From an uncultured Candidatus Peribacteria bacterium (lineage in GTDB: Bacteria; Patescibacteriota; Gracilibacteria; Peribacterales; Peribacteraceae), in NCBI GenBank assembly GCA_964443095.1, contig CAYUBO010000001.1, forward strand, positions 1-26,484: a stretch of DNA of 26,484 nucleotides. The letters run 5' to 3'. Positions 2,893 to 6,884 of this stretch are shown here, piece by piece. The notes beneath the pieces are model-generated. The model saw only the letters and a program-made list of their open reading frames with translations. It did not search any database and was not told the origin of the DNA. The position numbers and the translations under genes were made by a program. The first letter of the stretch is position 1, and every line of letters begins with the position of its first letter.

Positions 2893-3606
2893 CTAGAAAT
2901 AGAAAGGATTGAAGTTTGTCTTTTTGTCATAAAAATCCTCATGCTCCTTCCTCTTAAGATACCAAGCTACATGATACGTAACCGGAACTAATATAGCTTC
3001 ATAAAGCACTTTAATTACAAACAAAGAAACAATCAGACTTACCGCAATATTCCAGGAAAAGACTCCAAAGATGCATGCTATTCCAATGAATAAGACAGTA
3101 TCGATTGCTTGACCTACCAGCGAGGATCCAATTATTCGCCACCAAAGATGCTTACCTTGCATACCCACCTTCATTTTTGCCAGAACATACGAATTACTTA
3201 ATTCACCAAGGAAAAACCCTACTAAACTTGCAATCATTATTCCCCCTTTTAAAACACCTCCGAAAATCTGATCAAATGCTTCTGTTGTTGTATGAGAAGA
3301 GTCGCCAGGCATCCAACTCACAACTGTTAAGAACAAGCTTGTAAAAAGAGCTGCGAAACAAGCGAGCCACACCATCCTCCTCAACCTCGCATACCCATAT
3401 ACCTCAGTCACAATATCTCCCATTATGTAAGTTATCGGGAAAATAATCGTTCCTGCGGAGATTAGTATCGGCATATTGAAAAAACTTAGTTTGATATCTA
3501 TTACTTTCGCAGCTGAAGCAATATTGCTTAGCAAAAACACCACTACAAACAGCACAAGTAGCATGTCGTAGCATTTATAGGCCTTTCCGTCGTGTACAAA
3601 GCACAT
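2893..3606 (-). CDS. yhhQ: Queuosine precursor transporter (VUT/YhhQ family)
   Basis: SNIASAK, AGTIIFPITYIMGDIVTEVYGY, IASLVGFFLGELSN, RIIGSSLVGQAIDT and KVLYE motifs; about 6-7 TM. Confidence 0.9.
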   Translation of the reverse strand: MCFVHDGKAYKCYDMLLVLFVVVFLLSNIASAAKVIDIKLSFFNMPILISAGTIIFPITYIMGDIVTEVYGYARLRRMVWLACFAALFTSLFLTVVSWMPGDSSHTTTEAFDQIFGGVLKGGIMIASLVGFFLGELSNSYVLAKMKVGMQGKHLWWRIIGSSLVGQAIDTVLFIGIACIFGVFSWNIAVSLIVSLFVIKVLYEAILVPVTYHVAWYLKRKEHEDFYDKKTNFNPFYF

Positions 3607-3964
3607 CAGCGAAAAATTTTACTCTGTAGCTAGGGACAAAGAAAGTTACTTAACGATAAGACGCTTAACCAAAAGGATCTCAGAAATTTCGGAACCTGGC
3701 TTGAGAGTTTATAAAGAACTCGTTTTGCCAAAAGAGCCCTAGTTTAAAAGGATATCAAACCACAGTATCTGACTTTTTGTATACATTATTTATACACAAA
3801 ACCACCAAGAATCAGGTCAGTGCAAGACTGCCCCATAATTTGGATTGAGCCCTAAGTACTGCCACCAAGTATATCTTTACGTCATCAAATGAGAAGCTGT
3901 CAAAGGTTACTAGACAACCGTATCTCTCCCCGTACACTGCCCCACTCTCCTCTAAAACCTTAGA

Positions 3965-4081
3965 ATGATATATACAGTGAAGTACTTACTTCGCCATGCA
4001 TCCTTTCCGCCCGTGGTTCTCCACGTGCTCCTCATCACCCTTTACTCATTCATCATGGTGGTGAGACTCCCTCTCAGTTAG
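3965..4081 (+). CDS. Putative 38-aa Leu/Val/Ile-rich leader peptide or membrane micropeptide (MIYTVKYLLRHASFPPVVLHVLLITLYSFIMVVRLPLS); alternative GTG start at 3977
   Basis: Translated by hand (below the ORF-track cutoff); 17 of 38 residues are L/V/I; lies within a strongly structured RNA that ends in a terminator. Confidence 0.4.
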   Translation: MIYTVKYLLRHASFPPVVLHVLLITLYSFIMVVRLPLS

Positions 4082-4162
4082 GAGAGTAGTAGGATGCAAC
4101 GAGCCCCGTAAGGGAAAACATAAACCTCTCGCAAAAAGTGCAGCGGCACCGAGGGGCTTTTG
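3997..4162 (+). ncRNA. Unclassified multi-stem structured RNA (attenuator-like)
   Basis: TGCATCCT 3997-4004 / AGGATGCA 4091-4098; CGTGG-TTCT-CCACG 4012-4025; CTCATCACC 4031-4039 / GGTGGTGAG 4057-4065; CTCTC-AGTTAG-GAGAG 4071-4086; CCC-GTAA-GGG 4105-4114; terminal stem 4125-4156. G-U pairs work only on the + strand. Confidence 0.55.
4125..4162 (+). terminator. Intrinsic terminator-like hairpin
   Basis: CCTCTCG-CAAAAA-GTGC-AGCG-GCAC-CGAGGGG then CTTTTG; could also act, more weakly, on the convergent gene ending at 4181. Confidence 0.55.
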
Positions 4163-4180
4163 ACCCTATTTTATTCTTGA

Positions 4181-4681
4181 CTACCTCTCAGTTACTTTCA
4201 TAGTACCCTCCGCAACGTGTTGAGCTGGTGCGGGATTCCCATCATCTTTCTCAAGAGTGATAATTACCTTTAGCATATCCCTCAAATCGTCATCTCCGAT
4301 GAATGTTAGAAAGTGCCTCGAATCTCCAAGCTTATTTACAAGGTGCCCTGTGCTGATTGTTTTCCCACCCTTTGTAAGCCATCCCTCATAGAAGTATCCA
4401 TCCTCTGCAGGCTTGATGTTTAACTGTATTGCGTGACCAAAGGTACCATCCTGGAAGAAGTGTGCCTGAGCAACACCATTGGCGGCCACACCCTTCACTC
4501 CTGTCATAGACCCAATGGCAAACCATGTCTCTTCACCATGCTTCGGATCAACCATCTTCCCTCCGGTCGGCATTGCCTGCTGAACCTGATGCACACCTTG
4601 TGACTTCTCAACTACAACTCCCTTGTCACAACCCATGAGAAGCAGGGGCAGAAGCAGAAGCGGTAATAGCAATCTATACAT
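4181..4681 (-). CDS. Lipoprotein with anti-sigma-K factor RskA-like C-terminal domain
   Basis: Signal peptide II with lipobox LLMG-C; YEGWL, STG and ITLEKDDGNPAP motifs resemble the RskA beta-sandwich domain. Confidence 0.65.
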   Translation of the reverse strand: MYRLLLPLLLLPLLLMGCDKGVVVEKSQGVHQVQQAMPTGGKMVDPKHGEETWFAIGSMTGVKGVAANGVAQAHFFQDGTFGHAIQLNIKPAEDGYFYEGWLTKGGKTISTGHLVNKLGDSRHFLTFIGDDDLRDMLKVIITLEKDDGNPAPAQHVAEGTMKVTER

Positions 4682-4735: not shown

Positions 4736-6742
4736 TTACCAAAGGAATCCCGGTGGCCTGGCTTTCAGGCGCTCTCTTTCGAGTCTTGAATGGAAATCTG
4801 CACGTGCAGCTAGAACCTGATAGAAGGGCGCATCTTTGTAATAGAGTTTCGAAAGCCCCTCAGCAAGCCCCACCGTACCCTCAGCATTCGGTGAAAGAGC
4901 AACGAAGTGGCTATTCCTCTGAACGGCCAGTGCAAACTCCTGAAGAAGGGTATCAAATTCTTCTCTGCGATTATCAACATCTTCTCTCTTCTTAAGAGTA
5001 ATCATCGTTTTGATCAATCTGTTAGCAATATCAACATCGTTGTACTTGCCATAGTTATACGCCTGCGTATACGAATTGAATGCTTTTTGATAATCCTTCA
5101 CGGCAAATGAGATATCTCCCTGCCTCTTCCACGCTCTGTAATCTTTAGAATTGTCCTGGAAGTAATCGTCCAGAGCACCCTGTGCCTCCTCCATCTGCAT
5201 ATTCTCGTAATAGATCTTGGTGCGGCTCAAATCCATGTCTCGCTTAAATTTCTCAAGTTGGGATCTCTCATACCAGGTTATGGCAGTATCCGTATCTCCT
5301 CTCGCTTCTGCATGACGCCCGAACGACGACGTTGTAAGGAATACACCCTCATAAAAAGCAACCACAAGAAGGGCCGTGACAAGAACCAGTTCGGTTAAAT
5401 ACGCGACGCGTTTTGACATCGCTTTGCGCTCGACCGGTATCAATGGAAATGCAAGAAAGGCAACGAATAACCAGAACGGAAGAGCTATGCCTACAAACTG
5501 CAGATTGAAATCTACAAGGTTGTGCAAAATCACTCCTGAAATAGCAACAAAGAGTGCTGCCCTGAATGAGAACACATTCAATTCTTTATCTTTTTCATAG
5601 ATGCTCTTTGCTGTAAACAGCATTACCCATCCAAGCATGATGAAGAACAGAACCATTGGAATGACCCCCCGCTCCATTCCAAGCTTCAGAAAAACATTAT
5701 GAGGATGGTCTGATGTCTGAAGTACTCCTTCCTGCATTCTTGGCTGAATAAATCTGAAGCTGTATGGACCCCACCCAAAAACAGGCCTCTCAAGCATCAA
5801 CGTTCCCGCCTGCACCCAAAACTGTGCTCTCTCTCCAATTGATGATGATCCTTCATCCGCAGTAAATGTAACCTTGCTCTTAACATCCTGTACCTCATAG
5901 AAATGGGAACGGACACTATTCCCTCCAAGAAATACAAGAAATGCTACAGCAGCAACTAAGACAGCTACCGGGAAAACTTTTTCCCATGCGAATCTTTTTC
6001 CATGATGGAAATACAAAACAGAAGTCCACAAAACAAGCTGAATAACAGAAGCAATTATCGCTGCGCGTGAATAGCTTAATAAGAAACATCCAACAACAAG
6101 ACCGAATATCGCACTGCGTACGAGAAGTTCTACTCTGCCTCTTACCGAATTGTTGTTGATGTTGTAATTCTTGAGAGCCCAATACAGAACAACTGGCCAG
6201 ACAAGAAGAAGATACTGCGCCCATGCATTTGGCCAATAGTCTGTGTGGAATCTATGATCAAAGAATGTTCCGACTGCCCTATTGACCGGTTGGAAGACAT
6301 ATACAAAGAGTCCAACTGTGCATGCGATGATTGTTACTATTGATAGAGCTCGGATAAGTTCTCCGTGAAGTTTTACATCTCCTCCGCGACGGACAATCCA
6401 GAGAAACAGCAGAACAAAAGATGTCGTTCGCAAAACTTCATCTAGACCATAGTTTCCCGTTGTCGATAAAAAGAAGCTGGCGATTGTCCATCCTACAAAG
6501 GAAATCAAAGCCACCCACAACCACATTGGAACATGGTCTTTCACATCGGGCTCCATAGATTTCCTGTCCCTGAGAAATGTCATCCACAGAAGGAATGCTG
6601 TAACTCCGGTTAGTATCCACGTCATCTCCAGACTCTTCCCTCCACGCCATAAAACTGCCAATCCACAGAATATTACTAGAATCCACTGACTGGTTGCCTC
6701 ACATTCGAGGGTACGCAGACGCTCACGAGAAAGAAATCTCAT
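4736..6742 (-). CDS. O-antigen ligase/PglL-like membrane protein with C-terminal TPR repeats
   Basis: LLSYSRAAI, ERAQFW, RPVFGWGPYSF and HPHNVFLKLGMERG (Wzy_C/WaaL signature) plus a helical TPR tail. Start at ATG 6742 (MRFL) preferred to 6760 because a promoter-like TGc-AAAGAT sits 6 nt upstream. Confidence 0.8.
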   Translation of the reverse strand: MRFLSRERLRTLECEATSQWILVIFCGLAVLWRGGKSLEMTWILTGVTAFLLWMTFLRDRKSMEPDVKDHVPMWLWVALISFVGWTIASFFLSTTGNYGLDEVLRTTSFVLLFLWIVRRGGDVKLHGELIRALSIVTIIACTVGLFVYVFQPVNRAVGTFFDHRFHTDYWPNAWAQYLLLVWPVVLYWALKNYNINNNSVRGRVELLVRSAIFGLVVGCFLLSYSRAAIIASVIQLVLWTSVLYFHHGKRFAWEKVFPVAVLVAAVAFLVFLGGNSVRSHFYEVQDVKSKVTFTADEGSSSIGERAQFWVQAGTLMLERPVFGWGPYSFRFIQPRMQEGVLQTSDHPHNVFLKLGMERGVIPMVLFFIMLGWVMLFTAKSIYEKDKELNVFSFRAALFVAISGVILHNLVDFNLQFVGIALPFWLFVAFLAFPLIPVERKAMSKRVAYLTELVLVTALLVVAFYEGVFLTTSSFGRHAEARGDTDTAITWYERSQLEKFKRDMDLSRTKIYYENMQMEEAQGALDDYFQDNSKDYRAWKRQGDISFAVKDYQKAFNSYTQAYNYGKYNDVDIANRLIKTMITLKKREDVDNRREEFDTLLQEFALAVQRNSHFVALSPNAEGTVGLAEGLSKLYYKDAPFYQVLAARADFHSRLERERLKARPPGFLW

Positions 6743-6797
6743 ACCCCTATCTTTGCACAAAATACTTGCTTGCGTTAGTAGTTATCACAAACTTAGA

Positions 6798-6884
6798 TGG
6801 TGCCGAAGGAGAGATTTGAACTCTCACGGGGTTGCCCCCACACGCTTCTGAAGCGTGCGCGTCTACCAATTCCGCCACTTCGGC
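6798..6884 (-). tRNA. tRNA-Leu(CAG)
   Basis: Reverse complement GCCGAAG TG GCGGAATTGGTAGACGC G CACGC TT-CAG-AA GCGTG, long variable arm GGGG-GCAA-CCCC, GAGAG TTCAAAT CTCTC, CTTCGGC A CCA; 87 nt. Confidence 0.97.

Follow-up and report, generated by a model that had tools for sequence, protein, structure and literature searches.

The stretch of DNA analysed here (the window) comprises 26,484 nucleotides of an uncultured Candidatus Peribacteria bacterium of the family Peribacteraceae, positions 1 to 26,484 of the forward strand of contig CAYUBO010000001.1 in assembly GCA_964443095.1. Within a 574-nucleotide gap whose two flanking genes both lie on the minus strand, it carries a short plus-strand open reading frame (ORF; 3965–4081) for a hydrophobic micropeptide of 38 amino acids. 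It is likely that positions 3899–4161 of the plus strand constitute a complete monocistronic transcription unit for this family-specific micropeptide. The micropeptide gene is conserved among relatives at a syntenic site, bears the signature of a coding sequence and has a covarying RNA structure. The host genome measures 1.22 Mb in 165 contigs, is 81% complete and has a G+C content of 44%; the window is its contig C1. Related genomes are all about 1 Mb, and the DNA sequencing runs that contain the micropeptide stretch are marine or seawater metagenomes.

Homologues were searched for at both the nucleotide and the protein level. An earlier blastn search of 40 relatives with a longer query had returned one match only, and a shorter query, followed by a protein profile, was used after it. 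With window 3880–4180 as the query against 200 genomes of the family, blastn found copies of 3899–4075 in many genera, at 63–69% identity. A peptide profile, for which the alignment was extended a few codons upstream, matched 161 of the 200 family genomes; nearly all matches were single-copy, and none had an internal stop codon. Among the high-quality genomes of the family the profile matched 126 of 151, and in a sample of the class it matched 55 of 64 family genomes compared with two marginal matches in 337 genomes of other families. Ten of the genomes with no match were inspected beside the conserved lipoprotein gene that adjoins the element (see below), and four of them (G002, G078, G089 and G091) were found to hold diverged copies at the syntenic site; real occupancy in the family is therefore higher than 161 of 200. 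Public protein data contain 102 clusters of the peptide, mostly of 38 amino acids and every one unnamed or 'hypothetical', with sources that include Candidatus Peribacter riflensis and Peregrinibacteria. Judged by sequence comparison, the element is conserved across the family beyond chance in its sequence, its reading frame and its structure.

The ORF runs for 38 codons from an ATG at 3965, or for 34 from a GTG at 3977, to a TAG stop codon at 4079–4081. The encoded peptide has a basic N-terminal part and a single transmembrane helix, and it ends in a short tail that follows a nearly invariant Pro. The peptide is conserved from end to end, with invariant Ser, His, Ile and Val residues and a conserved Thr. 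All 19 of the homologues first collected kept the ORF, at 34–36 codons counted from the invariant GTG, with TAA, TAG and TGA sharing one alignment column at its end. Every insertion or deletion within the ORF was a multiple of three nucleotides, including the window's own 3-nucleotide insertion between the ATG and the GTG. Variability followed the order expected of coding sequence, second codon positions being the least variable (0.56 bits), then first (0.79 bits), then third (0.91 bits). The pairwise ratio of nonsynonymous to synonymous substitution rates (dN/dS) was 0.60 in frame, compared with 0.92 and 1.13 in the two shifted frames. In the 17-nucleotide loop of hairpin P3 (described below), each residue of a conserved Leu-Ser-Leu-Ser was encoded by three to five different codons, and serine codons switched between the TCN and AGY families; only selection on the amino acids accounts for this pattern. 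Two other candidates were rejected: a longer protein, given stop codons in all frames of both strands across the conserved block, and an LPXTG-like sorting signal, of which conservation is limited to the LP.

The plus strand of this region is predicted to fold more stably than its composition would suggest. Positions 3961–4175 folded at −68.8 kcal/mol, compared with −52.2 ± 4.6 kcal/mol for 200 dinucleotide shuffles (z = −3.62), and none of the 200 was as good; the minus strand gave z = −1.23. From 5' to 3', the predicted fold starts with a 5' hairpin, followed by a four-way junction with 3997–4004/4091–4098 as its closing stem, then a small hairpin and a terminator. The 5' hairpin (P1, 3977–3994; GUGAAGU/ACUUCGC) pairs the invariant GUG. 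One half of the stem that closes the junction (Pc) is UGCAUCCU (3997–4004), which forms part of codons 11–14 of the 38-amino-acid ORF, and the other is AGGAUGCA (4091–4098), which lies beyond the stop codon. Three hairpins are enclosed by this stem. P2 (4009–4028) is CGUGG-UUCU-CCACG with two additional outer G-C pairs; P3 (4031–4065) is a 9-base-pair stem, CUCAUCACC/GGUGGUGAG, with a loop of constant length, 17 nucleotides; and P4 (4066–4090) carries the stop codon in its loop. A small hairpin in the 3' untranslated region (UTR), CCC-CGUAA-GGG (4105–4114), is replaced by a longer one in relatives.

Much of this had been seen in a preliminary description of the stretch made from its letters alone, and the features themselves proved to be as described. 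These are the TAGAAT at 3961–3966; the hydrophobic ORF of 34–38 amino acids ending in IMVVRLPLS; the pairing of CTCTC (4071–4075) with GAGAG (4082–4086), both of which fall in P4, and of CCTCTCG (4125–4131) with CGAGGGG (4150–4156), followed by CTTTTG; and the 8-base-pair stem closing a four-way junction, with TGCATCCT at 3997–4004 perfectly complementary to AGGATGCA at 4091–4098, which the predicted fold also contains. Likewise, the fold is more stable than those of dinucleotide shuffles, both the peptide frame and the stems are kept in relatives, and the G-U pairs that had been taken to point to the plus strand are frequent in the alignment of homologues. Since a G-U pair would become a C-A mismatch in the complementary strand, these pairs do indicate that the plus strand is the one that folds.

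Comparison of homologues gave strong indications that the junction is maintained. In the alignment of 19 homologues, all cells of P2 (100%) were paired and both sides had changed in three of its five pairs, while 96% of the cells of P3 were paired, with compensatory changes. A P4-type hairpin around the stop codon was predicted in nearly every homologue; its register varies, and 70% of its cells pair in the MAFFT alignment. MAFFT and RNAalifold recovered P2 and P3 but could not align the 3' arm of Pc, since the distance of this arm from the stop codon varies, and per-sequence folds with shuffle and swap controls were therefore used. These folds are predictions, and the figures for Pc rest on per-sequence folding rather than on a structure-aware alignment or a covariance model. 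Of 40 unique homologues, 36 had Pc in their minimum-energy fold, compared with 35% when the 3' segment was shuffled. When the cognate 3' segment was used, 90% of folds contained Pc; with a segment swapped in from a homologue with a different arm, 34% did (Mann–Whitney p = 2e-12; the homologues are related, and such p-values therefore overstate their independence). The 5' arm reads GCUUCACUCC in most relatives, with its partner at a variable distance past the stop codon, and variant arms are matched on both sides (GUUUCAUCC/GGAUGAAAC, CACUUC/GAAGUG and CAUUCC/GGAAUG); the pair types found per column include A-U/C-G and C-G/G-C/U-A. The energy of the arm duplex alone discriminated weakly (−14.2 versus −12.0 kcal/mol) because the arm is rich in G+C.

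Codon and helix requirements fall on the same nucleotides. Among sequences sharing the same amino acid, the entropy of third codon positions was 0.58 bits in stems compared with 1.13 bits outside them; inside stems, Val was always GTG, Thr was always ACC, and Ile was ATC in 29 of 31 instances. A nucleotide in a stem therefore has to satisfy both its codon and its helix partner. The two can nevertheless part company, as in the copy in genome G078 (locus L068; C4, about 38,550–38,700). This copy encodes a 30-amino-acid version that has kept the membrane core (…LLHAVLITFLAVN…) and lost the N-terminal third; the promoter and 5' hairpin are retained, while the P3 and Pc stems are gone. It is a natural variant with the peptide but without the junction.

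The structure resembles no catalogued RNA in the searches made. At Rfam gathering scores, tRNAs alone passed in the window and 12 related loci, and the Rfam comparison proposed in the preliminary description thus yielded no family for the element. A permissive scan of 3550–4250 gave a single overlap at chance level, mir-202 at 3925–3988 on the minus strand (12.9 bits versus a gathering score of 51; E = 9.3). The signal recognition particle RNA (SRP), 6S RNA, RNase P and tmRNA were considered and rejected, their motifs and Rfam matches both being absent.

The element appears to have a promoter of its own. Upstream of the ORF lies a conserved block, GTCAA...CT(A/G)GACA (3899–3916, +), invariant or nearly so in the 19 homologues, which includes a −35-like TAGACA (3911–3916). 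It is followed by a −10-like hexamer, TACACT (3933–3938), with GTACACTGC invariant in the homologue alignment, and by a second −10-like box, the TAGAAT at 3961–3966, which overlaps the ATG. The layout TRGACA-N16-TACACT-N22-TAnnAT-N7-GTG (N10 in the window) was fixed in 37 of 40 unique loci; the other three have TAAACT or TACAAT at −10, and diverged loci keep TAnnnT there (TAAACT, TACAAT, TAGAAT or TACTCT). In a relaxed −35/−10 scan, 38 of the 40 loci had a plus-strand promoter-like site at a shared position. TRGACA and TACACT fit a sigma-70 promoter, from which transcription would start near 3944–3946. In many relatives (e.g. L009, L010, L025 and L067), TTGAACAC...GTCAA is found some 20–45 nucleotides upstream of TRGACA; the window has the GTCAA (3899–3903) and not the GAACAC. 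Around the −35 box, GTC-N12-GAC forms an imperfect palindrome, a region that may serve as an operator for some regulator.

Two start codons come into question, and the second −10-like box bears on the choice. TAnnAT was found in all 40 unique loci, exactly 7 nucleotides before the GTG (10 in the window). Among diverged loci it is absent in L069 (G091) and degenerate in L065 (G089), and in G002 it is the sole −10 box, 10 nucleotides before an ATG. The box may be either an A/U-rich, unstructured context for a start codon or a second, near-leaderless promoter. Over 40 homologues the predicted probability of being unpaired averaged 0.07 for the GUG versus 0.56 for the in-frame upstream AUG, which reaches 0.84 in the window. 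In G078, the ATG inside the second box is the only possible start codon, and transcription of that copy must therefore begin further upstream. We prefer the reading in which a leader of about 20 nucleotides precedes translation from AUG 3965; a near-leaderless mRNA beginning at the GUG, transcribed from the second box, is possible. In about 60% of lineages (e.g. L010, L013, L022, L037 and L042), the putative 5' UTR also contains a small hairpin, CUCCC/GGGAG with covarying variants, between TACACT and TAnnAT, the purine-rich arm of which lies 7–9 nucleotides before the AUG. Neither the window nor the g95 genus has this hairpin.

The initiation habits of the host genome were examined as well. 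Before the first start codon of 1292 long host ORFs, motifs resembling a Shine-Dalgarno (SD) sequence numbered 120 compared with 177 at control positions, a depletion, whereas TAnnnT boxes were enriched, with 103 at 6 nucleotides and 72 and 60 at 8–9 nucleotides against a background of about 25–30. The leaderless-type host promoters have a weak TTG at −35 and a TG just before the −10 box. By these counts, leaderless genes look common in the genome and SD sites scarce. A published survey (PMC10783764) classes Ca. Peribacter riflensis as SD-scarce.

At its 3' end the unit carries an intrinsic terminator (4125–4161, +), in which CCUCUCG/CGAGGGG encloses an inner GUGC/GCAC hairpin and is followed by UUUU, ending 19 nucleotides before the stop codon of the convergent lipoprotein gene. 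Homologues likewise end in a hairpin and a T-rich run, often ...TTTTGA.... Read on the minus strand, the terminator hairpin is followed by the U-rich UUUAUGUUUU; with U-rich runs on both sides, the terminator probably serves the convergent gene too.

The neighbours of the micropeptide gene are themselves conserved on one side. Downstream lies the convergent gene for a 166-amino-acid lipoprotein (4181–4681, −) with an LLMGC lipobox, its resemblance to RskA_C, the anti-sigma C-terminal domain, falling below threshold (28.4 bits versus a cut-off of 29.4); the convergence and the resemblance to RskA had both been correctly described. Next comes a gene for a 674-amino-acid Wzy_C (O-antigen-ligase-type) protein with TPR repeats (4736–6760, −). 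This pair of genes is kept beside the micropeptide gene across the family. In every one of 50 loci examined the downstream gene was convergent: the lipoprotein gene (fam1) in 41, and in the remaining loci the Wzy_C/TPR gene, except in L052, where the contig ends. The same adjacency of micropeptide and lipoprotein genes was found from genome-wide coordinates in many further genomes. Across loci, between 65 and 888 nucleotides separate the stop codon of the peptide from the lipoprotein gene. Judged from gene order, these conserved neighbours hint at a tie to envelope function.

On the other side the neighbour differs between loci. In the window it is a Vut_1/YhhQ-type transporter gene (2893–3606, −). 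The 5' regions of such genes often hold preQ1 riboswitches; a preQ1 riboswitch for the Vut_1 gene (3607–3830, −) was rejected, with no Rfam match and a fold z of −0.76. The genome contains two copies, 96% identical, of an A/T-rich palindromic element of 25 nucleotides (…GTATACATTATTTATACA…), one at window 3772–3796 and the other on contig C101 at 3851–3875 (L004 1501–1525). On C101 the element ends 8 nucleotides before an ATG, and in the window it lies about 170 nucleotides upstream of the start of the Vut_1 gene, which is on the other strand. The two copies may act as a common promoter or operator. tRNA genes stand on both sides of the region (2793–2866 and 6801–6884, both on the minus strand), and several related loci likewise have tRNA genes close to the micropeptide gene.

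Taken together, these data suggest how the unit could work. A sigma-70-type promoter (TAGACA at 3911–3916, a 16-nucleotide spacer and TACACT at 3933–3938) would start the mRNA near 3945. Initiation would most likely take place at the exposed AUG 3965, in an A/U-rich unstructured patch, in a clade that appears to make little use of SD pairing. From codon 5 on, the mRNA is predicted to be tightly folded: the 5' hairpin would pair the invariant GUG, and Pc, formed by codons 11–14 and the segment past the stop codon, would enclose three hairpins, two of them within the ORF and one with the stop codon in it. Such a junction may restrain or time translation and may stabilize the mRNA, and the terminator, probably used from both sides, would end the RNA 19 nucleotides before the stop codon of the lipoprotein gene. 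In the peptide, a spacing of 7 residues would place the conserved Ser and His on the same face of the transmembrane helix. We suggest that the peptide serves a membrane protein as a small subunit, either accessory or regulatory, and that this protein may be linked to the adjacent envelope genes.

Several observations weigh against this account of the unit. Searches of Pfam and NCBIfam with the peptide and its relatives gave no family match, and the look-alikes returned from the ESM Atlas were clusters of generic membrane fragments, with a chance-level score of 0.84. Among the RNA sequencing runs listed, none contains the stretch; three metatranscriptomes from the same study gave zero coverage, and a DNA run alone covers it. 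With respect to the start codon, the GTG is invariant, TAnnAT-N7-GTG resembles the signature of leaderless genes that is enriched in the host genome, and the proximal ATG is absent in the g95 genus and in L021. With respect to coding, one of the shifted frames is also nearly free of stop codons (two stops in 32 sequences), and an in-frame dN/dS of 0.60 is moderately low only, since the synonymous sites are themselves constrained.

It is also possible, though we regard it as rather unlikely, that the junction does more than package the mRNA. It might act as a conformational gate that shuts ribosomes out of the nascent RNA and admits them once the RNA is finished, processed, or bound by a ligand or protein, or it might be a second, RNA-level product of a dual-function RNA. 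GCUUCAC can, in most relatives, pair either with the 5' GUGAAGC or with a near-copy of that element past the stop codon. In the L017/L023 lineage the 5' element, the middle element and the post-stop element have changed together, and in L020 the 5' and middle elements have done so. Because these competing pairings co-vary, a refolding gate on translation is a live hypothesis. As a gate, the 5' GUGAAGC and the near-copy after the stop codon would compete for the same GCUUCAC, and the gene would have adopted a circuit in the style of type I toxins for an essential-like membrane peptide, in a lineage whose genomes are ultra-small and poor in SD sites.

The gene might, alternatively, be a type I toxin outright, with a membrane-damaging peptide whose mRNA is silenced by its fold and its paired start region until it is processed or refolded, and which a small RNA neutralizes. 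The peptide is hydrophobic, shorter than 60 amino acids and has a single transmembrane helix, and its stand-alone mRNA is heavily folded, with codons 11–14 paired to the 3' UTR and the GUG covered by a hairpin. The alternative pairings of GUGAAGC and its near-copy with GCUUCAC are reminiscent of hok- and AapA1-type mRNAs, which undergo staged refolding. Type I toxins are, on the other hand, usually patchy in distribution and present in multiple copies, whereas the micropeptide gene is single-copy in 161 of 200 family genomes, occupies one syntenic site and is under selection at the amino acid level. Moreover, a consensus scan of 40 loci, which would miss a trans-encoded RNA, found no conserved minus-strand promoter-like site over the ORF or 3' UTR; G078 retains the peptide without the silencing stems; and genomes of about 1 Mb have little dispensable DNA. 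A toxin role is therefore unlikely. We give slightly less credence still to the view that a structured regulatory or protein-binding RNA is the main product, the ORF being secondary (as in a dual-function RNA) or a by-product. Covariation of the junction, frozen synonymous sites in its stems, the constant 17-nucleotide P3 loop, the plus-strand z-score of −3.6 and an RNA that ends at its own terminator would all be expected of such an RNA. That loop nucleotides vary while the amino acids stay, serine codon-family switches included, would not be, nor would a stop column that holds stop codons only or indels that preserve the frame. In G078 it is the stems that are lost and the peptide core that is kept, and no Rfam match was found in the window or in the 12 related loci.

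The preliminary description had favoured an orphan attenuator, i.e., a leader peptide responsive to Val, Ile or Leu that was either left behind by a lost ilv/leu operon or controls antisense read-through into the lipoprotein gene. We consider this highly improbable. The peptide is indeed rich in Leu, Val, Ile and Met, the segments CTCTC/GAGAG and CCTCTCG/CGAGGGG are present, GAGAG could in the window pair with the CUCUC of the terminator arm, and the neighbouring gene is convergent, as antisense control would have it. However, a co-oriented downstream gene was found in none of the 50 loci examined, all of which have the convergent arrangement, and the peptide is conserved throughout, kept whole as a membrane helix and devoid of runs of regulatory codons; the Val-Val at which a ribosome had been proposed to stall reads V-V, V-M, V-L or V-I in relatives. 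The first two segments, taken previously for attenuator arms, are one hairpin of the conserved junction, and the last two form an ordinary, bidirectional-looking terminator, from which the first two are separated by the closing arm of the junction and a further hairpin. Nor did KARI_C (ilvC) or ILVD_EDD_N (ilvD) find a match in the 81%-complete genome, whereas all 14 of 14 control genomes were positive. One of the alternatives listed in the same description, namely that a hydrophobic membrane micropeptide is encoded by a structured mRNA, does hold, with a conserved peptide, a covarying fold and a probable transcription unit of its own.

The candidate phyla radiation consists of organisms with genomes of about 1 Mb, in which many conserved genes have no known function and small proteins are the least annotated. 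The micropeptide gene is present in about four-fifths of the family genomes, with diverged copies in some others, and is often skipped by annotation or else entered as 'hypothetical'. The gene is otherwise ordinary in kind; the main point of interest is that selection acts on the same stretch of some 120 nucleotides at two levels, peptide and RNA fold. The gene offers a clean test case for the control of translation in a lineage largely without SD pairing, and a candidate small subunit or regulator for the envelope proteins of organisms that have not yet been grown alone. It also serves as a caution, in that short hydrophobic ORFs accompanied by hairpins are easily taken for branched-chain-amino-acid attenuators.

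Small membrane proteins of fewer than 50 amino acids that are encoded by stand-alone genes, such as AcrZ, MgrB, CydX, KdpF, MgtS and SidA, usually bind a larger membrane protein. The micropeptide is like them in being small, with one transmembrane helix and a basic end, and in having a gene with its own promoter and terminator that is conserved in a defined clade. It differs from them in sharing no sequence similarity with any of the six and in belonging to no Pfam or NCBIfam family. It differs also in that a covarying four-way junction takes in most of its ORF; to our knowledge, no such feature has been described for AcrZ- or MgrB-type genes. With type I toxin mRNAs (hok/sok, tisB/istR, aapA/isoA and fst) it shares a short hydrophobic peptide, a compact, stable-looking mRNA, pairing of the 5' coding part with the 3' UTR, a partly paired start region and the potential for alternative pairings; unlike them, it is a single-copy, near-universal and syntenic core gene of its family. 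Leader-peptide attenuators (ilvL, leuL, hisL and trpL) likewise consist of a short ORF followed by hairpins and a terminator, but the micropeptide gene has neither a regulated downstream gene nor a run of regulatory codons, and it is the peptide itself that is conserved. Finally, as in the dual-function RNAs SgrS/SgrT, RNAIII/hld and SR1/SR1P, one short transcript is selected for both a fold and a small ORF. In the known dual-function RNAs the ORF mostly lies apart from the base-pairing region, whereas in the micropeptide mRNA structure and ORF coincide, and a target-pairing region is not evident.

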